NCBI GenBank assembly: GCA_026770705.1
Contig: JANJGN010000071.1
Span: forward strand, 682,001 to 746,000
Source of the DNA: Isurus oxyrinchus
Lineage: Eukaryota
Length of the DNA: 64,000 nucleotides
Direction of reading: 5' to 3'
In this document: positions 719 through 55,934 of the stretch, in pieces
Layout of the letters: each line of letters opens with the position of its first letter
Position numbering within the stretch: position 1 is the stretch's first letter
The notes under the pieces: model-generated
Database searches by the model: none
What the model was told of the DNA's origin: nothing
What the model saw: the letters and a program-made list of their open reading frames with translations, nothing else
Position numbers and translations under genes: made by a program

Positions 719-815
719 TTTCTCACACAGATGAAGATGAAGATTCCAGCCAGGAAAACACTCAACATGATCCCAGCCGTGAACAATCCTACTGTCCATT
801 TACTGGAGTCTCTAC
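719..815 (-). CDS. Gene A transmembrane exon (GRDSSKWTVGLFTAGIMLSVFLAGIFIFICVRK)
   Basis: Acceptor ttttacag| at 816-817 and donor |gtaagt at 718. Encodes about 23 hydrophobic residues with no charged residue, followed by RK. Missed by the ORF track. Confidence 0.85.
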
Positions 816-15353: not shown

Positions 15354-15803
15354 TGTCCACTCCCAGATATTTCATTAGCTTCTGACTTTCAAACTCTGAA
15401 AGAGAAAGGAGTTAAATAGACCTCACCTCTTGTCCGACAGCTCTCAAGAGATCAGAACTGCTTTTGGACAATGTCTTGACAGACTAATTTAATTCTCTGT
15501 GGGATGATAGGTACTCTGCAGAGAGTTACAAGGCTTTAAGAAAGAAAAACATTGAAGGATTTGCATTTCTATTGCACCTTTCACCACCTCAAGACGTCCC
15601 AAAGCTCATGTCTCTGCAATTCCCTCATCCCTTGAGCTAGAAAGATATTCTGTACAACAGACTTGAGCCTCACACCCTGATCTCAATAATCAGTAGAAAT
15701 CTTTCAAATGCATCAATCATTGGAATCTGTCTTTATAAAGTCACAACATCAACAAAGGACGGTGTTGGTCATGGAAGTGAATTCCAATCGTTCCGTTACT
15801 TAC

Positions 15804-15944
15804 CCAGGACCCGTCCGACTGCTCGTCTGGAGAGGAACTGCCCACCCGCTCTGCTTGAGCTGAATGACCTCTTCCTGTGCTGCTCCCTCTGTGTGTTTAA
15901 TTAGAAAGGGTGGATGTGTCACTGTGAGACAAAATGAGGAAGTG
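15804..15944 (-). promoter_or_regulatory. Gene A putative non-coding exon 1 and proximal promoter with PU.1/ETS motif
   Basis: Strong donor CTGG|gtaagt at 15803. AAAATGAGGAAGTG at 15931-15944. Block conserved in all three gene copies. Confidence 0.55.
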
Positions 15945-18470: not shown

Positions 18471-18491
18471 AGATTGTTGCTGTACAATGCT

Positions 18492-18631
18492 TCAAACAGT
18501 CTGTCGACTTCCTTTCACTGTTTGTTCCTCCCAGACACAGACTCCAGCGATAGTGATAACCACAGCCACAAGGAATATCACAGCTCGTATTCCCAGGATC
18601 AGGATCACGTGCAGAATCTCTCCTCCACTGT
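18492..18631 (-). CDS. Gene B terminal TM exon with intramembrane Arg and short tail (DSGGEILHVILILGIRAVIFLVAVVITIAGVCVWEEQTVKGSRQTV*)
   Basis: ctctag| acceptor, phase 1. CGA (Arg) at 18587-18585. TGA at 18494-18492. Confidence 0.85.
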
Positions 18632-25048: not shown

Positions 25049-25192
25049 AGATTACGCAGACGAGCAGAAATAGACAAATCATTGCAAATAGTGACACTGG
25101 TTAACACGGCCAAAAAACAAGCAAATCAAACATTATTATTTCCCATTGAGTGTTGAATGTGAATTGGTGAGTAATTATAACACAGCACTTAC

Positions 25193-25570
25193 CAGAAACC
25201 TGAAGCTGGGTTACAGGGGAAACGTTATGGCTCGGACGATTGCCAAATTTTATCATGAAAAAATAAGATCCTGCATCTTCCCGTCTGATGTTGTTTATAA
25301 TCAGGGAACAGTCGCCATCTTTCAGGTCTCCAGACAGCCGGGTCCGATGGCGGAACCGTGGCAACTCGCGACTGTGACCCTTGGAGTGAAAGGCTATAGA
25401 CGATTTAGACCATTTGTTCCGTATGTATCTTCTCATTTTCCAGATTCCGACCTGTGTTTTCTTTATCAAATCTGATGGATAACTGTAATGACATGGAATC
25501 TGTACACACGAACCTTCCTGCGCTGTCACCTCTCGTGGAGTGTCACCTTTCCACTCTTGTGACAATCCAA
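25193..25570 (-). CDS. Gene B V-set exon 1 (essential Arg replaced by Met)
   Basis: 378 bp open exon. YFFMIK where paralogs have YFFRIE. Confidence 0.87.
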
Positions 25571-27669
25571 CTGGGGAGAGAAATATCAATATTTAACTCT
25601 GGATGTTTTGTAGATCCACTACACTCGATATCCACCCCCTCCATCACTCGGGCACAGTGGCTGCAGTGTGGACCATCTGCAGGAGACACATGGAACTCCA
25701 AAAGGTATCACACCAGATGGAAGAGAATCCTGGACACAAAAGCGGAAAAGTTCATTCTACATTGGTTCATGGTCCTCAGGACCCTGTTTGTGCAGAAGCC
25801 TGCTCTCCAACAGAACTGAAGTTGGGGACAATGCATTTGGAATTCCACTGTCCGGGGCATTGGGTTAACTTGCTGATTTTGTTTTAAATCTAACATCTAT
25901 TTTTGGTCTGTTGCCTTTAAGGGACTGTAACTGGGAGTCAGGTTAATTAGGAATTTTAGGAGTTATGATAGCAGTCATTGTCGTTATGTATGTGCTTGAA
26001 ATCTTTTATTTTGACGACAAATATGTTAATTTATTGTTTTAAATCTCTAAAGGTATTGGTGGATTTATTGCTTCTGAATTAAGTGCACACATCTCATAAT
26101 AAATACAAATTGCAAAATCATTTTAATAGTGTGACCAGGTTTCTCTCAGGGACTTGGTCTGCCTGGCACACATCACCTGCCAAGTGATAACACTGTTGTA
26201 ATATGCCTTTCAGGGACAGCAGCATGACATCACTCGAGGGGAAGTGTGTCATGTGATTTTTAGGAACTGGTGTTCGCTTAAGTAAGTTCTATGTGTATTT
26301 GTGTGTGTTAGGCAAAAGGTCTATCTTCAAGTTCAAGTTTAGTTTGTATTTCTGTATTTGGGTGTTGAGAAAAGGGGGAACTTGAGTTAAAAAGAAGCCA
26401 GCATTCCATTGAGGTTTAATGACTGTTGAAGGGAAGTCAAAACAAATACAAGGTGTAAGAAACTGTGCTGTTGCCTAGCAACAGTGATCCAGAGGGAAGG
26501 ACCCACAGAAACAGAAAAAAACAGAAAAGTACCTTCAGTTCTGTTGAAAGGAGTTGCCAGGAGAAGCAGCAAAGGATTGGGACAGATAGTCAGTCCCAAA
26601 GTAAAGAAGAAGCCAAAACTATAGAGTTTGACAGGAGAAAGGGCCCAAGAAAACCTTCTAGTCAAATCTGGAAAAGGCCCTGTTAAGTGAAGTTAAGAGT
26701 GAGGAGCAGAAGAAGGCTTCAAGCATAAAGGGAGAAAGCAGCAGGACACAGGCCTAAAGCAAACTAGGCTTGTGAGAAGCCAGAAGATCCTAGGAGACAC
26801 CACAGGTTGGTGACTCATTACTACGGCCATGTGAAGCCATGGTGTTCCATTGACACGGCTGAGCATTGGAGAGACAGGGCGTGGAAGGAAGGCTGAATGC
26901 ACGTGGCGATCCAGGGGACAGGAACATGGGAAGGAGAGTTTGAAATAGTGAAAGTGGACCCTTGTGGAAGGTGTCTGAGTGAAAGTGTCATGTTGGAGAA
27001 GATTCCAAAGTGAGTTCTTGGAGAGTGGAGATTGGAAACTCTCATATGAAAGAAGCTTTTCAGTGAGACTGGTTGGCTCACAGTGTAACAAGCGTCTGGG
27101 GACAGATGAGACATAGAATTTGTTTCAAGTGGGCTCTGCCACTTGCTTTCAGAATGTGGTGTCCCTGACCACAGGTCGTCTATTGGTTTACACGGACTGT
27201 GTACTTAGTGTGAACATGAGAATATAAGATAGTTATCGTAATTTGTGTTCTACTTATGTATCTGTAAAGGTATAGGTCTGGGTGAAGGAGTAATGTCATA
27301 TAGTTTGTCTTTCCTAGTTTAATAAATGTTTTATTCTTTTGTTAGACGTTCATCAGATGACTCCTGTGACTCTGTTCAGTAGCCGCACTCCACATTCCTA
27401 AATAAAAAATAAAAGTTAGGACCTATCAAGCTGAGTTCCACCCTGGGATCTGACTTGCTCAGTAGTAACATCAGCTGGGATGGTAACACCATCCAGTCCA
27501 AGTTTCACTTTGGCCTGTGAGCAGAACACAGCTCACACAGTTTGGCTGCAGGTGTCTCCCAGCTTTCTATCCTTGTATATCTGTTCTCATGTCCCTGTTC
27601 TAAATAACTGAACCCACAATGTATTTACCCAATTCCGTATCAGTGGCTGGTGCCTTTATATCATTATAA

Positions 27670-29820
27670 AAACACAACATGGTGATCAGTGGTGGCCAAA
27701 CATTCTGGCAGCAAGTTTCAGTACAGGTATGACGTGGTGAACAGCCTAAGATCGAGCTACATGACATGAGACGACCCTCGACGCTTTGGTCAGACCACAA
27801 CAGAGACACAGCATCAGAGAGGGTTGAAATCGCAGTGTACTGACTGCTCAGGAAACCTTTGAAGACACAGTGACGGGAAAGAGCTCAAGTAAAGAGCTGG
27901 GGAGCAGACGGATCCCTCGTGGTGAGATTACAGCACACGGCCTGTAGGACAGTGAGTGGGACAGTGTGTATCGCCAGGACCAGCAGCGGGTTAGCTCAGT
28001 CAGGGAAGGCGAGTGACCAGGGTGTGGGCTGGATCGATAGTGAGCGAAGGAGAGTCAAACACACAAAAACCATTATAAAAATCAGCCCAGAGAAGTTAGT
28101 GATTATAACGGGCAGCTTCGAGATTGCTGAACAGCAAATTGAATAAAAAACAAAGACTCCATTACTCCGTGGTGTGTTCCTGCCACAACCCGTCTTCATG
28201 GGCGGAGCTTCGGAAAAGCACACAAAAGGGGCTAAAGCGACACTCATCCCAGGTCCTGTAGGAGAAGGAAGGTCAAAGGAATATTGTCAGAATATCCACG
28301 AAATTCCCCAGTTTGAACTGGGATGTAGCTGACCGACTATCTGAATTCAGAATGTTTAAACAGCGTACAGAGCTCTGGTTTCCTGATTCAGGTGTGACTG
28401 AACCAGACGAACAAGCCATAAAAATTCACCTCGCGATTGGGAATGAAGGTCTACACAGGCTGAGCACATCAGGATTAACAGCAGAAGAGCGAAAGGATCC
28501 CCAATAGAAACGGACGATATTGGAAGACAGGTTCAGAATCAGGTGAAACTCCATATTCATCAACTAGAGTTTATGTCATTTCATCAGCCTACACAATCCA
28601 TAGACCACTTCATCAGCCGATGTAGAGAAAAGGGTACGCACTGTGATTTCAAACACAGAGCCTGCAGACAGAGTTGTTGAGTTGGTGATTACATCCACTC
28701 CCATGGAAGCCTTCCAGAAAGATCTGCTAGATAAGACCAAAACCTATAGCATTGAAGAGCTACTCAAGGATGGACATAAATACGAAGTGATCCTCGCAGG
28801 TCAACGAAGCTTACAGGTCCTCAGTACAACATCAATTGTTGACACACTCACTAGAACATCCAAACCTAGTGAGACGTGTGGAAGGTGTGGCCTTCTGCAG
28901 GCACCAAGGAAATGCCCAGCTTTCCACCAATCCTGCAAGGCTTGTGGCAGAAAGGGCCATTGACAGCGGCAGCGCACTAGAGCAAAGGCTGATGCAGCTA
29001 CAAAGAGCTGTGCACTGATCCAAACAAACCCTACACAACGGGGAACTTTCAAGCAATAAGAATGACCATCCGCTATCCATCAGGAACATATAAATGTGGT
29101 GACTGACAAACCAGGAAATGGCGATGATGTACACGACGAGACTAGGAGCGGTGATCGATATTCCACCTCTCACACATATCCTGACGTGGCTTGCCAATAA
29201 ATTGTGGATTGTGGTCTTTATTGATCTCTCTGGGCACATCAAATTAACTGAAAATGTTCCCATAGGGGTGGGATTTTCTGGCCCCACCCACTTCCATGAT
29301 TGTCCAGTCCGGCCGAAAGCCAATGGATTTATGTCTGTCCCATTCTCAGAAACTATCCCATCAGCTCAGTTCATGACATAACATTGAAATATGCAGAAAG
29401 ATTCAACAATATTGGCAGGTTCAAGGGAGCTGCAACATTTCACCTGCAGGGGAATGCAAGTCTGTCAGACTCCTTGCATTAAAATTAATACAATCCAACT
29501 TTGCCACGCTATCTTGAGCCTTAAATGGCCAATAATTTCTATGCCTTCCAGTTTCATTTGCTCTCTCTTCTAATTTTGGCCGTGCATCTCTCTCTGTTGA
29601 ACCTCCTCTCGGGATCCGATCCCCTGCCATATTAGTTTAAAGCCTCCTCAGTTGCATCAAGGGTGTAATGTCAATTGAAACCAGAGACAACATCGAAGAA
29701 TGACAATCCCACAGATCAATGTGAGCAATTAAAGAAACCTCCAGACAATTTTGCCACCACAAGATCTTGATATAACAGCAGATTACCTCTACGCTTTAGA
29801 GACTCAAATATTCAACAGAT
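27670..29820 (+). mobile_element. Degraded Gypsy gag/pol (paralogous copy)
   Basis: Homologous to 12140-14280. Confidence 0.78.
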
Positions 29821-31127
29821 CTATACACTTATATAATTGTCAAGAAATATGAAAATGATACCAGGAACCTCTTGTTCCCTGTCCTTCTCAAAGATCCATC
29901 CCTGCAGCAGGAGCCTGAAGAGTTACTGATGTGGGGCTTAATTTATCAGATTGTAGAATGATCTGGAAATGAAGGATGCCATTTGGCCCATCGAGCCTGT
30001 GCTGGGCCTTTGAAAGATCTGTCCAATTAGTCCCACTCTAACCTCTGCTCTCTCCTCCACAGCCCTGCAAAATGTCCCCTTCAAGTATTTATCCAGTTCC
30101 TCTTCTGAAAGTTCCTGTTGAATCTGCTTCCACCGCCCTTTCAGGCAGTGAGTCAATGGTCTCTCTCTGAGCTGCAAAGTGATAAGTTTCAATGAAATAT
30201 AAACTCTGCAGCAGATCAGAAACCATCATGATAACTCAGAATATTTGACAGTTTTACATACAGACAGCTTTGCCTCCCTTCTCTCTATCAGTTATCTTGC
30301 TCCCTTATCGAATTTTCTAGCATGGTGAGAAGGGACAGGAAGTGTGACGCTGAACTGCCTGTCTAATCTAAGAGCTTCTGTGTTGTCTTCATGGGAAATT
30401 CTGATGAAAATCAGCAAGAGTGAAAAATTTCAGGGCATTGATATCGGAGTGCTAGCATCAGGATAGACTTCATCCCCCAGTTTTTATCCCTGCTTCTCTA
30501 TTCAGCCGATCGCTCCCCTGTCACTCGCTGACCTACACTGGCTCCCAGTCCAGCAATAACTCAATTTTCAAAATCTCTTCATTGATTCCTTATCCCTCCA
30601 TCCTCCCTCTCCACTCCCTATCACTGTCACTTCCTCCAGCCCTGAAACCCTTTGAGGTCTCTGCTGTCCTCCAATTCTGCTGTCAGACAGGGAGTCAGTG
30701 TATATCAGTGAGCACAGGGGTGATGGGTGAATGGGACTTGGTGTGAGTTTGTACACTGGCTCACTGCTGAACCGGTTCCCTATCAGAGCTCACTGCAGGA
30801 AGTGCGAGGGCTGGACTCTCTGTCTATTCTCACTGCAGCTGTGATGTGGTCGTGGTGATTCTCAGTAAAATGAAACCCTCTGAGCTCCTCCATCCCCGAG
30901 GTTTAGGGAGTGAATTCCAGAGCTCAGGACCCAGGCAGCTGAAGGCCCGGCCGCCAGTATTGGAGTGATGGGAATCGGGGGATGGTCAAGAGGCCGGAAT
31001 TGCAGTAACACAGAGATCTGGGAAGTTGTTTGGGTGAGTTGCAGGAGGTTACAGAGATAAAGAGATAAGAATGATCTTTTACAAAGACTATTAGCCATAA
31101 GTCTGTCCAAGCTGACGATGATATTAC

Positions 31128-31167
31128 CTTGGAGAAGTGACAGGAGGAAGTAAGATTTCCCGATCAC
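31128..31167 (-). pseudogene. Gene B leader exon with GTG in place of ATG (VIGKSYFLLSLLQ)
   Basis: Otherwise identical to the A and C leader coding sequence. Donor |gtaata intact. Confidence 0.8.
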
Positions 31168-31617
31168 TGTCCACTCCCAGATATTCCATCCACTTCTCAC
31201 TCTCAAGCTGTGAAAGAGAAAGGAGTTAATGAGACCTCACCGCTTGTCCGACAGCTCTCGAGAGATCAGAACTGCTTTTAGACAATGTCTTCACAGACTA
31301 ATTTGATTCTCTGTGGGATGATAGGTGCTCTGCAGAGAGTTACAAGTCTTTAAGTAAGACAAACAATGATTGATTTGCATTTCTATAGCACCTTTCACTA
31401 TCTCAGGACATCCCAAATCTCATGTCCCTGCACTTCCCTCATCCATTGAGCTAGAAAGATGTTCTGTACAACAGACTTGAGTCTCACACCCAGAATTCAA
31501 TAATCAGTAAAAATCTTTCAAAGGCATCAATCATTGGAATCTGTCTTTATAAAGTCACAACATCAACAAAGGACGGTGTTGGTGGTGGAAGTGAATTCCA
31601 ATCATTCCGTTACTTAC

Positions 31618-31758
31618 CCAGGACCTGTCCGACTGCTTGCCTGGGGAGGAACTGCCCACACGCTCTGCTTGGGCTGAATGACCTCTTCCTGTGCTGCTCC
31701 CTATTTGTGTTTAATTAAAAAGGGTGCATGTGTCACTGTGAGTCAAAATGAGGAAGTG
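31618..31758 (-). promoter_or_regulatory. Gene B putative non-coding exon 1 and promoter (PU.1/ETS plus AP-1 motif)
   Basis: Donor |gtaagt at 31617. AAAATGAGGAAGTG at 31745-31758. TGAGTCA at 31739-31745. Confidence 0.55.
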
Positions 31759-31865
31759 CTTGGTACCAAGTGAGAAAGCAACTCTTTGCCTCGCACTGTT
31801 AGAAAACTGTTAACCCTTTGCGTGCCAATAATGTGGTTGAAGGGCCATCGACTGTTCATATGCAA

Positions 31866-33225
31866 CAAGCTCGAGGGTTTGAATGGGCCTCCTCCTGTTC
31901 CTGTGTAACAGGCTCGAGGGGTCTAAATGGGCCTCCTCCTGTTCCAGTGTGACATGATTGTGTGGCTGATTAAGCCTCCCCCTGTTCCTGTGTAACAGTC
32001 TTTGGCAGGGCTGAATGTGCCTCCTCCTGTTCCTGTGTAACAGGCTCCAGGTGCTGAATGCCCTCCCCCTGTCCTTGTGTAACAGGCTCGAGTGTCCGAA
32101 TAGGCCTCCTCCTGTTCCTGTGTAACAGGCTCAAGAGGCTGAATGGATCTCCTTGTTTTCCTGTGTTACAGGTTAGATGGTCTGAATGGGCCACCTCCTG
32201 TTCCTGTGTAACAGGTTCAAGGGGACAGAATGGGCCTCCTCCTGTTCCTGTGTAACAGCATCATGGGGCTGAATGGGCCTCCACCTGTTCCTATCTAACA
32301 GGCTTGAGTGGCAGAATGGGCCTCCTCCTGTTCCTGTGTAACAGGCTTGATGGGGCTAAATGAAGCCCCTAATGTTCCTGTGTAACAAGCTTGTGGAGGC
32401 TGAATGGGTCTCCTGTACCTGTGTAACAGGCTCAAGGGGACAGAATGGGCCTCCTCCTGTTCCAGTGTAACAGGCTCGAGGGAACAGAATGGGCCTCCTC
32501 CTTTTCCTGTGTAACAGGCACGAGGGACTGAATGGGTTTCCTATTCCTGTGTAAGTGGGTTGAGAGACTGAACGTCCTCTTCCTGTTCCTGGGTAACAGG
32601 CTCGAGGAGCTGAGACTCTCTCCTGTTCCTGTGGAAGGGTGTTGAGGGACTGAATGTCCTTTTCCTGTTCCTGTATAATAGGCTCAAGAGGCTGATGGGC
32701 TTTCTCCTGTCCTCATGTAACAGGCTTGAGTGGCTGAATGGTCCTCCTCCTGTTCCTGTGTAACAGGCTTGAGGGAATGAATGGGCCTCCTCCTGTTCCT
32801 GTGTAACAAGCTCGAGGGGGCTGAATGGGCCTCCTCCTGTTCCTGTGTAACAGGCTCGAGGGAATGAATGGGCCTCCTCCTGTTCCTGTGTAACAGGTTC
32901 GAGGGGGCTGAATGGCCTCCTGCTGTTCCTGTGTAACAGGATCAAGAGGCTGAATGGGCCTCTTCCTGTTCCTGTGTAACAGGCTCGAGGGGGCTGGATG
33001 GGCCTCCTCCTGTTCCTGTGTAACAGGCTCGAGGGGCTGAATGTGCCTCCTCCTGTTCCTGTGTAACAAGCTCGAGGGGGCTGAATGGGCCTCCTCCTGT
33101 TCCTGTGTAACAGGCTCGAGGGCCTGAATGGGCCTCCTCCTGTTCCTGTGTAACAGGCTCGAGGGGGCTGAATGGCCTCCTGCTGTTCCTGTGTAACAGG
33201 ATCAAGAGGCTGAATGTCCTCCTGT
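31866..33225. repeat. ~42-43 bp minisatellite from CR1/SINE tail (CCTCCTCCTGTTCCTGTGTAACAGGCTCGAGGGGCTGAATGGG)n
   Basis: About 30 tandem units immediately upstream of the gene B promoter. Confidence 0.9.
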
Positions 33226-33445: not shown

Positions 33446-34559
33446 GGTGCCCTCTTGTTCTTGTGTAGCAGGTTCGAGGGGGCTGAATGGCCTCCTCCTG
33501 TTCCTATTCAATGGGCAGTCAAAGAATGTCTGATTTTGGACCTCGAACCCAATTCTGTCCTCAGGACATTGACAGAAGGAGAGACCAGTTACAGGTTAAT
33601 GCCGGAGGATTATTTATTTTCCCAATCTTTTATCCAAGTATCTCATCAAACACAGAGCAGAACCAGGATCAAGGATGTTGGTCTCTGTGATCTGTAACAC
33701 ATCGCACAGTCCACCCATCCACTCAGCCTTCAGGATGGATGCTCATTGTACTCTCCAAGTGTGAAAGACTAAAATGATGGTTTATTGCAGCTATATCTCA
33801 TTCTGTTGTCAAAGCTGTCTCATCCATCCATGACATATTGAAGAAGGTAAACCTGCAACCAATTTTTCACATCATAATTTCCTATGTTCATTGGCAACAT
33901 CAATGTAAACATGTCACGCTGAAATGATGTCCTGCCACCAGTGGTGGCACTGTATCACATCTGTTATCCTCTGAGCTGCAGAGAATTTCTCAAATCTCCA
34001 ATCAAATTGTTTCCCTGTTTCCGGGATTGCTGATGGTTTTGCTCTTTAACGATGAAGTGTAAAATCCAAATATATATCTGAAAATACATTTGACTACAAA
34101 ATGCTGAGTAAATTTTACCAATCTCTTCTGCTCCAATTATCCACCGATCCTGCATTTCCTGAAGTCTACACTGGCTGATGAATATTCTGTAAACACTGAC
34201 AGACAGGAAGGTGAATAACAGAATGAAAATTAACTCATAATCACGGACACGGGATTGAATTTGTGCGTTCTGTCCTGGTACATCATCGAACGATATCTAA
34301 AGACATTTACAATCAGATTGGAGAGAAGTATGTTTCCAACAGTGAGGGACAAATCTGAAGGAGGATGTTCGAATTGAAACCCACAGACAATCATCCTGGA
34401 TAGATCATTCCGAAGAAATTCCATCAGATTGTAACAAGAGGTTTAAATCTATTTCCTGGGAGTGAGTTCCTGTGGATATTAGGAAGGTAAATTGGAGTTT
34501 TGAATGATTCTCCCGTTCTGTATTCTCCCCACACTGTCTGTGTCTCATTCTTGCTCAGT

Positions 34560-34676
34560 TTATAAATTCCCATAAACAGAATCCTCGGCAAAATCACAGT
34601 TTGCGTAAAGATCATCATCTGTATCAGGATTGACTCCGCGGTTAGATTTCATTTCCAGATCCTTCTCATCTTTCTT
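34560..34676 (-). CDS. Orphan terminal cytoplasmic exon with tyrosine motifs (KKDEKDLEMKSNRGVNPDTDDDLYANCDFAEDSVYGNL*)
   Basis: Acceptor tttctgtttctattacag|, phase 0, 38 codons then TAA. DLYAN plus C-terminal SVYGNL (ITIM consensus). AATAAA on the minus strand at 33781-33786. Confidence 0.72.
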   Translation of the reverse strand, partial: KKDEKDLEMKSNRGVNPDTDDDLYANCDFAEDSVYGNL

Positions 34677-34789
34677 CTGTAATAGAAACAGAAATGATCA
34701 GAGTGACAATCAGAGTGATCAGTGTTTAGTATTATTGATCCAAATCGAAAATTCCACCCACAATACATACATTAATTATTGATACTGTT

Positions 34790-37700
34790 GGATGCTGCTC
34801 ACGAGTTTGTTGGGACTTATGGATCCAGGCTTGTTTTGGAGAGGCTGAGTAGGTACAATAGACAGAGTAGATCAGCAGACAGTTCTTAGATGAAACACAT
34901 TCTGCTTATTTACAAAGGAACTCAGCTACACTTGTGTGCTTTCAACTCAAGCCCTGTCTCCGCATTACAGGCTCTAACTAAAGGTGACCGACTACTGAGG
35001 TACCTGCGCCACTCGGCTGTTGGACACTGATATAAGAGTTAAACAGGGACTTCTATTAGTGAAAACCAAAGGTCAGCAGAATTCTCCAGGTGAACCTTGT
35101 GCACCATGGGGCTGACATCAGCAGAACTCTCCAGAAAGGGCTTGAAGATCACAAGGGATTAACTCGAGAAGTGACATAAAGAGATGCTGAGGGTAAACAG
35201 ATAAGGTAAAGGCAAACAGCACCAGGCTAGAACGAGATAAACAGTTCTTGCTTGGGTAAGGAGCAGATATGTACCTGGGACTGGGAACATCTGCTTATTA
35301 TGTGATTATGTACTGACAAGATTTGAATTTAAATAACCCAATGTGTACGTGACTAACTCTGTGAACAAAAAAGATGGTTTCCCTGTAATGGGTAGAGTTC
35401 TGTTTTTAGCCAGGCCTGAGGTTGATTCTGAGAACACACCACAACACTGAGCTCATGTTATCTTCCATTGTAACCTTCTTCTTAAAGGTATATCACACAT
35501 CAGATTACCACCACCCTCCCCCTTTACTCAGAAACACATTTTACACTTACTTTTACCATTTTCTCAAAGTATCAGATGATTAACACAGATCAGTAATTTA
35601 CAAATTCAGTCTTTCTGGGGGGTTTCCTTATGCGTCTGGAACGTCTCAGATCCACAGCTTCAGATGCTTTGTCAGGAGTCTCCTTTTCTGATGTTGTCCC
35701 AACACCAGCTTCTTCGGTGGACACCTGCAAACCTGTTTCCTCAACTCTTGCAGGTCCAACGGACCCTTCAGACACATCTGTTCTCAGCTGAGTTCTTTCA
35801 ACAGGAGACATAGACGCAGCCGTGAAGACTGGTGGGGTTGTTTCTTGGTACTTTGTTTCTCTCCTCCTTATATGACCCACATGTCTCCATATGACTCGCT
35901 CTTCCACTTTCACATGGTGAGAAAGAGTTCCAATCGCTGCATTTATTTCACCCGGTGACCACTTTGGCCGTTCTCTAAAATCGTTCACATATACCGTCTC
36001 TCCTACGGTCAGCTTCCTGTCATGACTATGCCAGTCATGTCCAGTTTCCTGTCTTCCTGGACTCCTTTCCACCTTCCCGCTGACATTTAGCATGACTGAT
36101 GTTGCAAATGTGACGTGAGAAAAAACTTTTTCACACAACTAAGTTTTGGGCCTGGAATGCACGGCCTGGAAGTGTTGTGGAGGCAGGTTCAATCGAGGCA
36201 TTCAGGAGGGCATTAGATGATTATTTGGATAGAGAAAAGGTGCAGGGGCACGGGGAAAGGCAGGGCAATGACACTAGGTCATGATGCTCATTTGGAGAGC
36301 TGGGATAGACATGATGGGCTGAATGGCCTCCTGCTGTGCCATTAAGACTCTGTGATCCTGCAGAGGAGACTCTGAAAGGCAAACCGGTTTATTGATACAA
36401 CCCTTTGTGTGTATTAATTGTGACAAACTTCTGGGAGGCCTTCTCGAACTCCAATTGTTGATAAGCATGGCTCATATCAGCTCCGTGTAGGCCGTTCCAG
36501 TCAATTCTTGTCATCTCCACAAACACATTGGCCAGGCTCAGGTACAGGGACTATTGGTGCTGCCCATTCTGAGGACAGCACAGATTGTATCACTCCCAGT
36601 TTCTAGAACCTGCCCAATTCAGCATCTGCCTTTTCCCACATTGCATAAGGTACTGGCCGTGCCTTCATAAATCAGAGGGGTAGAGTCTGGATCCACATGA
36701 ATTTTTGCTTGCAGCCCCTGGATCTCCCCGAGTTCATCTTGGAAAACTGAGATGTATTTTTGTAGTAGCTCAGGTAGCCCACTGGCTCTCAGTTGGAAGA
36801 TCTCAGACCAATCCAGCTTAATATCTTTCAGCCAGTTTCATCCAAGGAGGCTTGGTCCCTCACCAGCTCCCATCATCAAGGGTCATTTTACTGATTGACT
36901 TCCATACTGTATAATAACCCTGCTTATGTCTTTGGCTTGAATGTCTTCTCCCGTGTAAGTTTTCAATTAGTCATCTGTTTCTTCCAAATTTAATTGACTT
37001 TCCCCATGATTCCAGTATTTGAAAGTATGCTCACCAATTAGCGTAGTGTTAGCTCCTGTATCCACCCCCATTCTGAGAGCTCTATCATTCACCCTCACTG
37101 TTACATAGATTGGCTCTGTTCTTCCTACCTTTAAATTATACAATGAATAACTATCTGAATCTGTTACTTCAGGCTCTTCTATGTTATGGATCTCACAGGG
37201 TTTTCTCTCTTGATTGAAACTCTGCCTGATTCTATCCTTGCAATCTCTCATGGGCTCTCTGTTTCGATGACAGTAAAAACAATTGATATTTTTAAAGTTC
37301 CATTCACTACGAGGTTGTCTGCTTCACCTCTGTTCCCATTATTCCATGTTTTCTCTGCTAAGTCATTCCTTTTTATTTGCTGCTAGTGGTGGACGTTTCC
37401 CGTTTCTCATCAGAGCTGTACATTTTCCCACACTTCTTGGCTGAGGCTCCTCACCCAACATGAGGACGGTGACATTTTGCACTCTCCATATGTTTTTCGA
37501 GTCCCTCACTGCTCTTTCCATAGCCAGCACTCTTCCCAGCGCCTTCTGAATATCCAAATCTGTTTCAGACAGTAATCTCTTCTGAATCGAATCTTCATTT
37601 ATACTGCACACCAGTCGATCTCTCAGCATATCATTTATAGATTTACCAAACTCACAATGTCCTGTTAACTGTTTCAGAATTTCCACATAACATGCAGCTG

Positions 37701-38160
37701 CCTCCCCTGGGACTCTATTTCTTGAGTTAAATTTGGACCGTTGCATCGTTACCGAGGGCTGGGGCTGGGAAGGAATCTTCACAAGGTTCACTATATCATC
37801 TAAACTTTTTGAATCCATGGCACCGGGTGACATTAAAGTTCGCATCAATCCCTAAGTCTTACTCCCACACGTGGATAAGAGGGTCGCTCGCCTCTTCTCC
37901 TCCCCATCAATGTCATTCACTTGGAAAAAGAACGCGAGGAGTTCACCATAATGAGACCAATCGCCCACCGTTGGGTCGAAAGGATCAACTCTTCCAAACT
38001 GCAGCATTCTTCGAGGGGACTGCTTCGGTTATTAGGATGGAAATTATATTTATAATCACTGCGTGAGGCACAGCCCGATTTCAGTTCCCTTGCTCTCATT
38101 CCTTGCTTTTTCTTCCTTGTTTTTCACCTCATCGCCAGTTTATTCAACGCTTGTCACTAC
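34790..38160 (-). mobile_element. Degraded Gypsy LTR retrotransposon (gag, protease, RT start, integrase C-terminus, 3' LTR)
   Basis: PBS-like TGGCGATGAG at ~38138. Gag CEFG...LRDRLVC.I.EDSIQKRLL. Protease VDTGA. LRRSRRIRKPP. Polypurine tract near 35515-35525. Confidence 0.8.
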
Positions 38161-38164
38161 TTTA

Positions 38165-38470
38165 GTTTGCACTCCCTCGGTACTGAGCCTGCGACAGTGC
38201 AGCATTCCCTGGGTACGGACCCTCCGACTGTGCAGTGGTCCCTTAGTCATGAGCCCCTGATAGTGCAGCAGCCCCTAAGTGCTGATGCTTGAAAAGTGTA
38301 GCGCTCCCTCAGCATTGACCATCTGACAGTGCAGCACTCCTTCAGTACTGGCACACCCAGAGTGCAACACTCGCAGTACAGAACCTCCGACAGTGCAGCA
38401 TTAAGTCAGTGCTGACCGTCCAACAGTGCAACACTCCCTCAGTACTGACTCTCCGACTGTGCAGGACTCT
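38165..38470. repeat. Degenerate 33 bp minisatellite upstream of gene C
   Basis: CAGTGCAGCACTCCCTCAGTACTGAC-like units. Confidence 0.75.
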
Positions 38471-38707
38471 CAGTCCGGACACCGAGTGCCGGTCTGGTTT
38501 GCCAGCCTGAATTTTGCCAAATGAATTTCGAACTGACGACCTTCTCACTCAGAGAGAGAGAGAGGGTTCGAAATCCAGTGTCCCACAGGAGAAATTCCTG
38601 GTCAATGACTTTCCACTTTTGAGCAGAAATATCATCACAAGTCCAGAACGCAAAGGGTTAACAGCTTCAAAAAACTCAAAACACGACCTGTTCTGTCACT
38701 TTGATCC

Positions 38708-38848
38708 AACTTCCTCATTTTGTCACACAGTGACACATCAACCCTTTCTCATTAAATACACAGAGGGAGCAGCACAGGAAGAGGTCATTCAGCCCAAGCA
38801 GAGCGTGTGGGCAGTTCCTCCCCAGGCAAGCAGACGGACAGGTCCTGG
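38708..38848 (+). promoter_or_regulatory. Gene C promoter (ETS/PU.1 motif) and putative non-coding exon 1
   Basis: AACTTCCTCATTTT at 38708-38721. Donor CTGG|gtaagt at 38849. Inverted homolog of the A and B blocks. Confidence 0.55.
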
Positions 38849-39298
38849 GTAAGTAACGGAATGATTGGAATTCACTTCCACAACCAACACCGTCCTTTGT
38901 TGATGTTGTGACTTTATAAAGACAGATTCCAATGATTGATGCCTTTGAAAGATTTCTACTGATTATTGAGATCTGGGTGTGAGGCTCAAGTCTGTTGTAC
39001 AGAACATCTTTCAGGCTCAAGGGATGAGGGAAGTGCAGAGACATGAGCTTTGGGACATCCTGAGGAGGTGAAAGGCGATATAGAAATGCAAGTCCTTCAT
39101 TGATTTATTTTTTTAAAGCTTTTTAACTCTCTGCAGAGCACCTATCATCCCACAGAGAACCAAATTAGTCTGTGTAGACATTGTGTAAAAGCAGTTCTGA
39201 TCTCTCGAGAGCTGTCGGACAAGAGGTGAGGTCTATTTAACTCCTTTCTCTTTCACAGTTTAAGAGTCAGAAGCTAAAGGAATATCTGGGAGTGGACA

Positions 39299-39338
39299 AT
39301 GATCGGGAAATCTTACTTCCTCCTGTCACTTCTCCAAG
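39299..39338 (+). CDS. Gene C leader coding exon MIGKSYFLLSLLQ
   Basis: Acceptor tttcacag| at 39258, ATG at 39299, donor |gtaata at 39339. Confidence 0.84.
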
Positions 39339-42300
39339 GTAATATCATCGTCAGCTTGGACAGACTTATGGCTAATAGTCTTTGTAAAAGATCATTCTTA
39401 TTGAGCTCTGATAGGGAACCGATTCAGCAGTGAGCCAGTGTACAAACTCACACCAAGTCCCATTCACCCATCACCCCTGTGCTCACTGATATACACTGAC
39501 TCCCTGTCTGACAGCAGAATTGGAGGAGAGCAGAGACCTCAAAGGGTTTCAGGGCTGGAGGAGGTGACAGTGACAGGGATTAGAGAGGGAGGATGGAGGG
39601 ATAAGGAATCAATGAAGAGATTTTGAAAATTGAGTCATTGCTGGACTGGGAGCCAGTGGAGGTCAGCGAGTGACAGGGGAGCGATCGGCTGAATAGAGAA
39701 GCAGGGATAAAAACTGGGGGATGAAGTCTATCCTGATGCAAGCACTCCGATATTAATGCCCTGAAATGTTTCTCTCTTGCTGATTTTCATCAGAATTTCC
39801 CATGAAGACAACACAGAAGCTCTTAGATTAGACAGGCAGTTCAGCGTCACACTTCCTGTCCCTTCTCACCATGCTAGAAAATTCGATAAGATAGCAAGAT
39901 AACTGATAGAGAGAAGGGAGGCAAAGCTGTCTGTATGTAAAACTGTCAAATATTCTGAGTTATCATGATTGTCTCTGATCTGCTGCAGAGTTTATATTTC
40001 ATTGAAACTTATCACTTTGCAGCTCAGAGAGAGACCATTGACTCACTGCCTGAAAGGGCGGTGGAAGCAGATTCAACAGGAACTTTCAGAAGGGGAACTG
40101 GATAAATACTTGAAGGGGACATTTTGCAGGGCTGTGGGGGAGAGAGCAGAGGTGAGAGTGGGAATAATTGGACAGATCTTTCAAAGGCCCAGCACAGTTT
40201 CGATGGGCCAAATGGCTTCCTTCTGTTCCGGATCATTCTACAATCCGATAAATTAAGTCCCTTTTCAATAACTCTTCAGGCTCCTGCTGCAGGAATGGAT
40301 CTTTGAGAAGGATAGGGAGCAAGCGGTTTCTCATATCATGTTCATATTTATTGACAATTACATAAGTGTACGGAACTGTTGAATATTTGAGTCTCTAAAG
40401 TGTGGATTTGACCTTCTGGTACACCCAGATCTTGTGCTGGTTACCTTGTCCGGAGGTGTCTTTAACTGTTCACAGTGATCTGTGGGATTGTCACCCTTGG
40501 ATGTTGTTCCTGATTTCATGTGGGATCTTCTCCTCGATGGAATAGGAGCGGGAATGTATCTGATTTATCCTCGGTTCCGCCTCACCGCTGTGCCCTTGTG
40601 TGTTTGACTCCATAGGCCCTTGGTTCTGAACAAATCCTTGTCACCTCGGCTGGTGGTCATGAACCTTCTGTGGGATCCTGGATGTGAACTTGTCCCAACT
40701 GTAAACTTGGCAACTCTGCACCTCCATTTTTATCACGAACATTCCTTATCTTCTCTTGTAGTTTTAAAAGTTGCGCTCTGGTTTCTGAGAGAGTAGAATG
40801 GGTAAGAGTAGCGAAATTGGTCACTACTGGCCCACCAAACATGCTCTCTGTCAGTGATGGAATAAGGTGAGGTGATGGTGTAGTGGTATTGTTGCTGGAC
40901 GAGTAATTCAGAGACCCAGGGTAATGTCCTGAGCATATGGGTTCAAATCCTGCCATAATAGATGATGGAATTTGAATTAAATAAAAATATGAAATTCAAA
41001 GTCTAGCAATGACCACAAAACGATTGTTGGAAATCCCACCTTGTTCACCAGTGCCCTTTAGAGAACAAAATTGTCTGGCCGACATGTGACTCCAGACTCC
41101 ACGTCAATGTGGTTAACTCTTACATTAGGGATGGGTAATAAATCCTGGCCTGACCAGTGACTCCCACATCCCATGAATGAATTTAACAAAGTTGCAGTTG
41201 TAGGTGTCGATCTCAGATGTAACATTGCAATGTGTGGATCTTGCTTGGCCTGTCTACATTTGAGAATTAGGGATTTCACTGTGTGAATCATTCATTCAGC
41301 TAGGCTGTTAGATCTGGGGTAATGAGGAGAAGAAGTAGTGTGATTGATATTCCAGATTATCTGTAATCATGTCCCTAGGCTCACCAAATAAACTGAAAAT
41401 AGTGCTTAGAGTGTAAGCAGCAGTTGTGCTCGGTGTGTTGTGCTATTTTTGAATAACGGGATATCTGGTAAAGCTGTCGACGATGATGATGAAGTCAGTG
41501 ACATGGACATGAAAGGATTCAGATGTGATTTTGGACTAAGAATGGGCAGGAATTTCCTGTGGAATCAGTGGTTCTTTGTGTTGACTTGGCTCATCCTCTT
41601 GACAAGCCTCGAACTTCCCTACAACAACTTCAAGGTCATTGTTCATACCCGGCCAGGGACTGTATCTCTTGTGAGTCTCCTTGTCTGATCTGTGCCCATG
41701 TGTGAGGGATGAAGTTGTTGAAGAATATATCATCACAAAGGTTCTGGTATGATGCGATGCCTGCCATTAAAAATGACTCCCTGGGAGATGCCTCGCTTAT
41801 CCCGATGAGGTCAAGTTGAATCAGGCCACCCTTTCAATGATATTTCCACAGTTCCTGTAGATTTTTTCACTGTCCCCTCTTGTAGCTGCTGGCATTTCTG
41901 TTGTGCTAAATGTACTGGATCAATTGACAGACTTGCATTCTCCTGCAGGTGTAATGTTGCAGCTCCCTTGAAACTGCAAATACTGTTGAAACTTTCTGCA
42001 TATTTCAATGTTATGTCCATGAACTGAGTTGATGGGGTAGTTTCTGAGGTTGACCCATGTCAGTTCTGACAGATTCCATGGATTGTCACTAGTGTGAGGT
42101 CACCGCATGCCGGTAGACTTGCAATTGCTCAGCCTTTAGTCTCCACGATGTAGAACATCTGTGACACCCAGGAGGATTGATTGTACTTGCACCCCAGGAC
42201 TATGTATTCCGCACATGGAGTTGGTGAATTGTTGTACACAGCAGTAGGTTTCCCCATGGACTTCCATGTCCTTGGATACATGTCTTTGAAAATTTACTGG

Positions 42301-54300: not shown

Positions 54301-55550
54301 GTTAAGACAAACTTCAACATCTCTCTCAGATTGAAACACTACAAAAACACACATAAATATACAGCCTTAAATAGACACCTGCATACACACAATCCCACAT
54401 CTATGAGCACACACAAAGACACACTCACAAACAAACACACTAGCACATACTCCCCTGTGGATTACCTGACCTCCCTCAGTGCTGCACCGGAGAGTTGACC
54501 TGGATTCTGGGATTTGTGTTCCCTTTCATATTTATGGAAGAATATGGAAATTGCAAAGTCTATTACAGACACTCAGATGCACAGAGATACTCACAGATAC
54601 ACTCTGCCTCTCCAACTCTCTATCCTACTTTAAGAACCTTCCTGAAATCTAACTCTTTGACCAGTCACCAGTCCCAATTCCTCCTTACGTGATTTTGTGT
54701 GAAATTTTGTTTGAGTATCTGAGAGTAAGAGGGAAGTGGAGAGGTTTAGGAAGGGAATTCCTGTTGCTGAAAAGCTTACATCAAGTTCTCAGCTTTCCAG
54801 TGCCCATTTTTCACATGATGTCCATGTTCATAATGGGGATTGCCTATGTAAACATCACGCTGTAGTTACACTCTCCCACCAGTGGTAGCACGGTAACACT
54901 TAACCCTTGCATCTCCAAGCTTTTCAAGCAATTTCACTTCCTAATTTCCTACTATTCACCTCAACCATTCCCTGTGGGAGCGAGTTCCATATTCTCCCCT
55001 CTCTCTGGGTAAAGATTGGAACTGTTTATTAAGCGGGGGGTGTAAGTCCGTGGGGGAGTCCATCCCGATACTGCCCGATTCGCACACACGGCTGAGATGG
55101 ATTTTCACCCGGCACTAAAGGTTTCCAGAATTTTCTACAGCACAATCCTGTACACAGCGATGGAGAGAAACATTGGACAGGGAGTCCAACAGCACAATGA
55201 TCCATTCTCACCAATGTTCCACGCTAAGGAGAAAGTTCCGATTGTCCACTCTTAGAGTGTTTACAATGAAAACATTCATTCCACATTGAATCCCAGTGGA
55301 TGGGTCAATATTACAGCAAATGTTGCAGTGATATGAAGCTTGATTGTTCAGCCAGAGTGAGAGATTGAAAGCGGAGAGTCAGTGATGATTTCTTTCTGTG
55401 TGTTCTCTAGACAGTGGAGGAGAGATTCTGCACGTGATCCTGATCCTGGGAATACGAGCTGTGATATTCCTTGTGGCTGTGGTTATCACTATCACTGGAG
55501 TCTGTGTCTGGGAGAGACAAACAGTGAAAGGAAGTCGACAGACTGTTTGA
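39299..55550 (+). CDS. Gene C: intact Siglec-like activating-type receptor, leader-V1-V2-V3-C2-TM(Arg)-short tail
   Basis: Exons 39299-39338, 46348-46725, 50126-50494, 52431-52796, 53525-53821 and 55411-55550. All open and phase-compatible with canonical splice sites, running ATG to TGA. Confidence 0.88.
40380..44240 (-). mobile_element. Degraded Gypsy (longer paralogous copy: gag, protease AKIDT.AS, integrase remnants) with nested SINE (~40870-41190) and MITE-like insert (~42517-42640)
   Basis: Inverted homolog of 12140-14280 with extra pol segments. SINE B-box GGTTCAAATCC at ~40940. Confidence 0.78.
46348..46725 (+). CDS. Gene C V-set exon 1
   Basis: 378 bp open exon with YFFRIE. Confidence 0.9.
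46985..48480 (+). mobile_element. L2 RT fragment plus 37 bp minisatellite (paralogous copy)
   Basis: LLVLLDLSAAFDTLDH. Confidence 0.85.
49275..50065 (-). mobile_element. CR1 fragment (paralogous copy)
   Basis: Homologous to 22232-23030. Confidence 0.85.
50126..50494 (+). CDS. Gene C V-set exon 2
   Basis: 369 bp open exon, 5 aa different from gene A V2. Confidence 0.9.
51580..52370 (-). mobile_element. CR1 fragment (second copy from the 2.3 kb tandem duplication)
   Basis: Homologous to 49275-50065. Confidence 0.85.
52431..52796 (+). CDS. Gene C V-set exon 3
   Basis: 366 bp open exon starting AEPSQ like gene B V2, with YFFRIE. Confidence 0.9.
53525..53821 (+). CDS. Gene C Ig C2-set exon
   Basis: 297 bp, tgttag| and |gtaagt. 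Confidence 0.9.
55411..55550 (+). CDS. Gene C terminal TM exon with intramembrane Arg (DSGGEILHVILILGIRAVIFLVAVVITITGVCVWERQTVKGSRQTV*)
   Basis: ctctag| acceptor. CGA at 55455-55457. TGA at 55548-55550. Confidence 0.86.
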
Positions 55551-55934
55551 AGCTTTGTACAGCAACAATCTGGTCAGTCAGTGCGGACAAATAACGTGTG
55601 ATGTTGTGTTAAGTTGTAATGAAACTGGTCAGTGTCCTGGTTATAATCATCTCCGTATCATCGAGTCATTCCAGCAATGGAGGAGGACATTTGGCCCATT
55701 GAGTCTATGCTGTCTCTCTGTAAAGGAATCCACTCAGTCCCATCCCCTGCTCTATCCCCGTATCCCTGCAAATTTATTTCCAAGTGTCCGTCCAATTTCC
55801 TTTTGAAATTGTTCATCGAATAGGAATGAACAGAAATGTGACGTTGCTAAACTCTGTTCTCTGATTGGAATGTGCTTTCTGAATGCTGCACCTTTTTCAT
55901 GCTGCGATAGATTGTAAGAAGCATTTGGCTTATG

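Follow-up and report, generated by a model that had tools for sequence, protein, structure and literature searches.

A stranded terminal exon of a shark Siglec-like receptor subfamily, most likely gene debris multiplied within a very large cluster of paired receptors

The window analysed here, the whole 64-kb stretch G000:C71:682001-746000 of a 5-Gb genome assembly, is surrounded by V-set and C2-set exons whose best solved relatives are those of Siglecs. It holds the transmembrane (TM) exons of three genes, which we call A, B and C, and, between two inverted arms, a terminal coding exon with no gene attached, hereafter the stranded exon. The features are as follows, with coordinates in the window.

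719..815, minus strand: neutral TM exon of gene A, whose own cytoplasmic exons lie at -3..-84 and from -1311 (G000:C71:680689)
18490..18630, minus strand: TM exon of gene B, with an intramembrane Arg and its own stop, activating type
29676..31823, minus strand: upstream block of gene B, one inverted arm
31834..33225, strand not applicable: 43-bp minisatellite, downstream of the 3′ UTR of the stranded tail
33613..34559, minus strand: 3′ UTR with two AATAAA signals; probable-RNA contigs of relatives cover 33690-34680
34560..34676, minus strand: stranded terminal coding exon, 38 codons plus stop, 92% identical to the C-terminus of XP_041037225.1
34677..34785, minus strand: last-intron remnant of 109 bp (24-bp minisatellite end, pyrimidine tract, acceptor), matching the intron end of gene-linked copies
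34786..35511, minus strand: Gypsy-type 3′ LTR with a nested insert of ~400 bp; its natural end is the junction with the intron remnant
35512..38140, minus strand: Gypsy-type body, decayed and with internal deletions (pieces of gag, protease, RT and integrase), 5′ LTR missing, with the break at the primer-binding site
38169..38480, strand not applicable: 33-bp minisatellite marking the second breakpoint; the inverted flank from upstream of gene C starts here
38648..40518, plus strand: upstream block of gene C, the other inverted arm; it includes, at 38764-38848, a first-cytoplasmic-exon copy whose strand does not suit the stranded exon
55412..55552, plus strand: TM exon of gene C, with an intramembrane Arg and its own stop, activating type

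The stranded exon runs from 34676 to 34560 on the minus strand, with 38 open codons (34676-34563), a TAA stop (34562-34560) and an in-frame Met at codon 9, and is preceded by a pyrimidine tract and an AG acceptor at 34678-34677. Its translation, a probably disordered stretch of 38 residues, carries two tyrosine motifs: DLYANC, which is YxN and not an ITIM, and the C-terminal SVYGNL, which is YxN and also fits the ITIM consensus S/I/V/L-x-Y-x-x-I/V/L, as worded in the accessible part of PMC4810170. One AATAAA lies at 33786-33781, 774 bp past the stop, and another at 33618-33613. A preliminary description of this DNA had reported the acceptor, the 38-codon open exon, both YxN tyrosines with the ITIM fit of the last, and a downstream AATAAA, and each of these is seen on the minus strand, the acceptor and coding part at 34678-34560. 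Also correct was its placement of the exon 5′ of gene B on the same strand and antisense to gene C, as was its remark that convincing partner exons are missing: none was found upstream on the same strand within the 64-kb window. A pattern for the exon, set up post hoc, was found once among 60 shuffled windows; that the exon is beyond chance is settled by homology.

Gene A has a tail of its own just left of the window, made up of an 82-nt exon (-3..-84) and a terminal exon that runs from -1311, 1.3 kb outside. This terminal exon carries an ITIM-like and a TxYxxI motif and is of another type than the stranded exon, so the earlier idea that the stranded exon previews the tail of gene A falls, and its identity with that tail is ruled out by gene A's own terminal exon. 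Several other features of the neighborhood were recorded. The first V exon of gene B (25101-25592, minus strand) has Met in place of the essential Arg, which its second V exon keeps. At C71:662151-672618 (window -9.4 to -19.8 kb) lies a gene with one V exon and at least eight C2 exons; its TM is neutral, and its tail has a classical ITIM and a TxYxxI motif. The number of C2 exons differs widely between the paralogs of the cluster. Truncated V exons, cut just past the F-strand, lie at +72.2 kb (minus strand) and +94.2 kb (plus strand) in the L029-L031 region and are of the same subtype as in the white-shark homolog described below. A 295-bp block that holds a copy of the 85-nt first cytoplasmic exon is found upstream of most cluster promoters, in the window at 38764-38848 (plus strand), ~31600-31700 (minus strand) and ~15800-15900 (minus strand); either the duplication unit left this block behind as debris, or the block serves both upstream and as an exon.

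Homologs were found in a protein search, in which two proteins among seven candidates end in this exon with 92% identity, both of them white-shark ‘MAG-like’ RefSeq isoforms. With a white-shark protein as the nearest named one, the source of the window is probably a shark. The Carcharodon carcharias ‘myelin-associated glycoprotein-like’ proteins (XP_041037222-225, RefSeq predicted) share the TM exon, both cytoplasmic exons and the terminal exon, and in XP_041037225.1 they follow in that order with this exon at the very end. The window copy of the exon, for its part, has no gene attached. In its V and first C2 domains the white-shark homolog belongs to a different subtype from the one gene-linked copy that was modelled (~30% identity in V). 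Transcript evidence comes from contigs of relatives in runs whose RNA status is a guess. Contigs of four such runs (coded organisms A and B) cover 33690-34680 and end at the acceptor, and the loose ends of contigs X1, X2 and X6 (two studies) agree by eye in 30 of 30 letters with the 3′ end of a 105-nt penultimate exon. Because the contigs leave the stretch at the acceptor and their loose ends match the penultimate exon, we regard the exon type as real and spliced in relatives. Of the spliced junction at 34676 that the preliminary description had looked to, the join to a penultimate exon therefore stands in relatives, while the contigs are not assignable to the window copy. No contig in the relatives' runs covers 34684-34800 or the joint between LTR and exon, but these runs may lack the cassette, so that the gap speaks neither for nor against use.

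How widespread is the exon in the assembly itself? A 23-base motif of the tail exon gave 133 matches (reversed control, none) and a motif of the penultimate exon 95 (control, none). Among the first 100 of the 133 tail matches listed, 71 have the penultimate exon within 5 kb, 26 have the stranded junction and three are other, two being another gene and one a stranded copy with an altered junction. Assembly-wide, the tail exon divides into ~95 gene-linked copies (TM, two cytoplasmic exons, tail) and ~40 stranded ones, although the counts of 133, 95 and 40 may include two haplotypes and the numbers per haplotype may be half of these; a hint in that direction is that another Siglec-like gene occurs twice and that the loci L001 and L002 are 99.6% identical. 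The term orphan exon, used previously, holds insofar as the exon is real and without a gene here, but with 133 matches it is not unique.

All 45 gene-linked copies examined have the order TM exon, 85-nt exon, penultimate exon, tail, with a normal distance from penultimate exon to tail of 0.4-3.4 kb. Thirty-five of them are open with canonical splice sites; six of the remaining 10 have an altered penultimate acceptor, and skipping the penultimate exon preserves the frame, as in white-shark isoform X2 (of XP_041037222-225), in which it is skipped in frame. Splicing of the TM exon straight to the tail was considered for the parent gene and rejected, because the phases clash and the 85-nt exon (phase 2 to 0) and the 105-nt exon intervene. 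One damaged member of the subfamily near the window, C71:796478-800254 (window +114.5 to +118.3 kb, L034), has a 2-bp deletion in its tail and an altered penultimate acceptor. The tail of the parent gene reads YENC, YANC and terminal SVYGNL, that is, three YxN tyrosines with the last one in an ITIM, and 86 of the 87 copies of the exon carry SVYGNL in frame. Together with their acceptors, the penultimate and terminal exons go back to an old internal duplication (69% over 127 nt; L052, C71:415227-415913).

One full gene of this kind, at C71:404-416 kb, consists of V, four C2, TM and tail and keeps the essential Arg. In a comparison made for one gene, the V exon of the gene-linked copy C71:407803 matched PDB entries with a best E of 3e-15; the 17 best of its 32 PDB matches are Siglec-5, CD33, Siglec-8, MAG, Siglec-10, sialoadhesin and Siglec-7, and its YFFRIE aligns with YFFRVE of Siglec-5, which carries the essential Arg of the F-strand. 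That Arg is absent, by eye, in the white-shark homolog (P0001) and hence varies within the subfamily. C2-set domains, a single neutral TM and cytoplasmic tyrosine motifs, all of them Siglec traits, are present in the parent gene (Pfam on P0001). The CD33-related pattern of a membrane-proximal ITIM and a distal ITIM-like motif is not found in its tail, whose last tyrosine alone matches the ITIM consensus; the tail of gene A comes close to that pattern. On sequence grounds, then, the exon type is the last exon of a shark Siglec-like receptor subfamily, inhibitory-type by motif. Sialic-acid binding by the parent receptor is putative. From analogy with CD22 and the catfish receptor LITR 1.1b, the phosphotyrosines of the working genes are predicted to recruit Grb2-family adaptors and, through SH2 domains, an SHP/SHIP phosphatase, which would damp activation. 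A transposon origin of the exon was also considered and is ruled out, as the exon is gene-linked at ~95 places and present in a RefSeq protein.

The same exon is used by a second gene. A many-C2 Siglec-like gene, present in two copies at G000:C121:1443911-1450548 (L045) and on C150 (L082), has the terminal exon 6.4-7 kb downstream of its TM exon and is without the two cytoplasmic exons, and a second loose end, in contigs X6 and X8 (two studies), matches its TM exon, so that TM exon and tail exon are joined directly in these contigs. That TM exon ends in phase 2, so that the tail exon would be read in a shifted frame, giving nine mostly basic residues and a stop and leaving the tyrosine motifs in the 3′ UTR; the frame of this type of join in relatives we infer from the ungapped alignment. 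A possible intervening exon of 67 nt in the genomic copy of this gene is absent from contigs X6 and X8.

Turning to the stranded copies, a motif across the 3′ junction gave 38 matches on 10 contigs (control, none) and a search with the LTR added two more, and the junction is common to 40 of 40 copies, on 11 contigs. An assembly artefact is unlikely, since 40 diverged copies on 11 contigs argue otherwise. A 5′ junction motif gave 43 matches, 42 of them on cluster contigs; the LTR match on C21 is a fragment only. The acceptor, the frame, both tyrosines and a poly(A) signal are intact in all 40. Not one of the 38 junction-motif copies has a penultimate exon within 80 kb, the nearest lying 80-823 kb away (23 copies) or being absent from the contig (15 copies), and the window copy lacks what a functional exon would be expected to have: no partner exon lies within 80 kb, and no spliced contigs are assignable to it. 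Each of the 23 stranded copies with long flanks (18 and 5 from two sets) faces an inverted promoter, the genes behind these promoters differing between copies, and in the 264 kb around the window the cassette sits at two of three head-to-head switches. Accordingly, the earlier proposal that the exon is the remnant of an inhibitory paralog severed by the rearrangement that created gene C survives in part: an inhibitory-type remnant does lie at a rearrangement junction, but the cut is not specific to gene C, because the same junction occurs 40 times with different genes in C's place.

The junction can be assigned to a retroelement. The LTR family ends at the base matching 34786 in 10 of 10 fetched loci, which makes the junction an insertion edge; it sits 109 bp above the acceptor, and in the window copy the rest of the last intron is gone. 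The LTR is in sense orientation directly upstream of the exon, old and interrupted. A Gypsy element directly upstream had been noted before, and this agrees with a remnant that adjoins the exon and has weak aspartyl-protease matches (E ~5e-4, below the Pfam cut-off). Two elements at other places in the genome, which have paired LTRs and are ~80% identical to each other, share 74-82% identity with it. Pfam gave no match for the gag and integrase pieces; the order gag-protease-RT-integrase and a PBS-like motif were read by eye, and the window copy has only the 3′ LTR. The clade of the element is probably Ty3/Gypsy. On its 5′ side the element breaks off at the primer-binding site, where the 33-bp minisatellite takes over and, with it, the inverted flank from upstream of gene C. 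One stranded copy is without most of the LTR and another without most of the Gypsy body, and both still carry the exon.

Stranded and linked copies have no fixed differences. Of 705 columns compared (leaving aside the linked row L034, with its short flank), 26 are polymorphic in both groups, 20 of these non-CpG and several at similar frequency. Diversity among the stranded copies is 0.027 in the exon vs. 0.013 in the adjacent LTR, the latter from 38 of 40 copies, two being left out (LTR deleted in one, flank short in the other). On a tree, the stranded/linked label needs 10 changes, at least three of them forced by well-supported branches; the AU test did not reject a single clade of stranded copies (p=0.135), and the case for exchange therefore rests on the shared variants and not on the tree. 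Taken with a single origin, the shared variants suggest that conversion or unequal crossover with working genes is likely what keeps the stranded exons fresh, while recurrent mutation may lie behind some of the shared sites. The exchange is seen as a pattern, without direction or benefit. As for selection, 57 of 723 LTR sites are variable, and at that density only ~0.7 disabling events would be expected in the exons (1.1 including the tyrosines), so the intactness of 40 of 40 copies is no sign of selection, the test being weak both ways. The ratio of nonsynonymous to synonymous variants is 11:4 in stranded vs. 12:4 in linked copies, on ~92:22 sites. Neither variant counts nor intactness, at low power, gives a sign of selection on the stranded copies.

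We conclude that the window exon is very probably the terminal exon of an inhibitory-type shark Siglec-like subfamily, left here as a stranded, likely non-coding leftover, likely of one origin, that now exists in ~40 copies. The stranded copy is most likely debris of a gene, amplified within a very large paired-receptor cluster, and the stranded copies are likely unused as protein. The simplest reading is of one insertion, one severing inversion and then segmental duplication: a Gypsy element would have inserted into the last intron of such a gene; an inversion-type break at the 5′ end of the element would then have cut off the tail and created a head-to-head junction; this junction would have spread by segmental duplication; and gene conversion or unequal crossover with working genes would preserve the exon without any selection acting on the stranded copy. 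The order of insertion and break is what we infer, as the two have not been seen separately: in none of the 45 gene-linked copies examined does an intact intron still contain the element. Against the debris reading, the acceptor, frame and tyrosines retained in all 40 copies are as a used exon would show.

Could the stranded copies be used after all? They might be expressed from the sense-oriented LTR directly upstream, yielding a soluble ITIM/YxN peptide of 30 residues that starts at the in-frame Met of codon 9, or a regulatory RNA, as a decoy for phosphatases or Grb2, and the acceptor, frame and poly(A) signal kept in 40 of 40 copies would suit such a role. However, intact exons are expected by chance at this divergence, the variant ratios of stranded and linked copies (given above) point to no special constraint, the LTR is old and interrupted, and a motif scan found no strong donor-like motif within it, only one just upstream, all of which makes this very improbable. 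Very unlikely, too, is that selection maintains the stranded tails as a stock of 3′ modules from which receptor genes are repaired or re-tailed via recombination. Variants common to stranded and working copies would fit this, as would the occurrence of the same 3′ module on a different Siglec-like gene and a frameshifted linked tail 80 kb off in the same orientation, but the exchange is only a pattern in which neither direction nor benefit appears, and passive hitch-hiking with the promoters of the two flanking genes accounts for the copy number.

The preliminary description had also considered that the exon might close a long gene whose start lies beyond 64 kb, gene C being nested in its intron. 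A same-strand set of TM, first cytoplasmic and penultimate exons does exist at 115-117 kb in window coordinates, and 2 bp are deleted from its tail copy; yet the nearest same-strand penultimate exon is 80.4 kb off and has this frameshifted tail copy of its own, against which the claim does not stand. Such a gene would need an 80-kb intron, when normal spacing between penultimate exon and tail does not exceed a few kb, and that intron would have to pass over a TM exon on the same strand at 106.7 kb as well as a nearer acceptor followed by its 3′ UTR; upstream of the 115-117 kb gene, the fetched flank shows no V exon, and for the other stranded copies the nearest candidate is as far off or absent from the contig. 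We therefore hold this to be extremely unlikely. More speculatively, the 3′ signalling module may be a swappable part, the ~40 stranded copies a recombining reserve from which genes are repaired or re-tailed, and the other Siglec-like gene one that captured the exon. We think this unlikely; were it true, signalling class would be switched by the shuffling of tails and not by the ectodomain conversion known in primate Siglecs.

The debris reading that we prefer has consequences of its own. About 30% of the ITIM exons of this type look perfect and yet are without a gene, a warning for annotators that, wherever gene conversion operates, an intact frame and intact motifs do not prove that an exon is used. 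The cluster is large, with 227 matches to an Arg-type and 225 to a gene-A-type TM-exon motif assembly-wide (contigs C52, C71, C121, C150, C189 and others) and more than 500 matches to TM-exon or penultimate-exon motifs, possibly over two haplotypes. Supplementary file 9 of PMC8455134, which from the part available lists Siglec families, may bear on cluster size. A literature search short on subscription journals and without supplements found no paper on a shark Siglec cluster or on this cassette.

As far as the available parts of PMC6288428 and PMC5701461 describe them, the CD33-related Siglecs, with the paired Siglec-5/14 and -11/16, likewise have a V-set domain with the essential Arg and C2-set domains, and likewise combine ITIM genes clustered with charged-TM activating genes and gene conversion among paralogs. 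The shark tail differs from theirs and from that of gene A, having three YxN tyrosines and one terminal ITIM where gene A has a pair of ITIM and ITIM-like motifs, and the shark cluster differs from these Siglecs in its hundreds of TM exons and in that it is the signalling tail, and not the ectodomain, that undergoes conversion. Inhibitory Ig-family tails that combine ITIMs with a pYxN motif for Grb2 are described for CD22, with its Grb2 site, and for catfish IpLITR 1.1b in the available portions of PMC5302901 and PMC4810170; there binding is shown or reported, whereas in the shark tail it is predicted only, and CD22 has three ITIMs, unlike the single terminal ITIM of the shark tail. Inverse duplication is known from LILR clusters, according to the part of PMC3533184 available. 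The cassette, for its part, is a clean marker for the growth of a very large shark paired-receptor cluster. In the KIR/LILR and chicken CHIR clusters, partial genes have been left and multiplied by duplication and inversion, so that the stranded exon is of a known kind. In contrast to the fragments in those clusters, in the shark one fragment and one retroelement junction mark ~40 head-to-head junctions.
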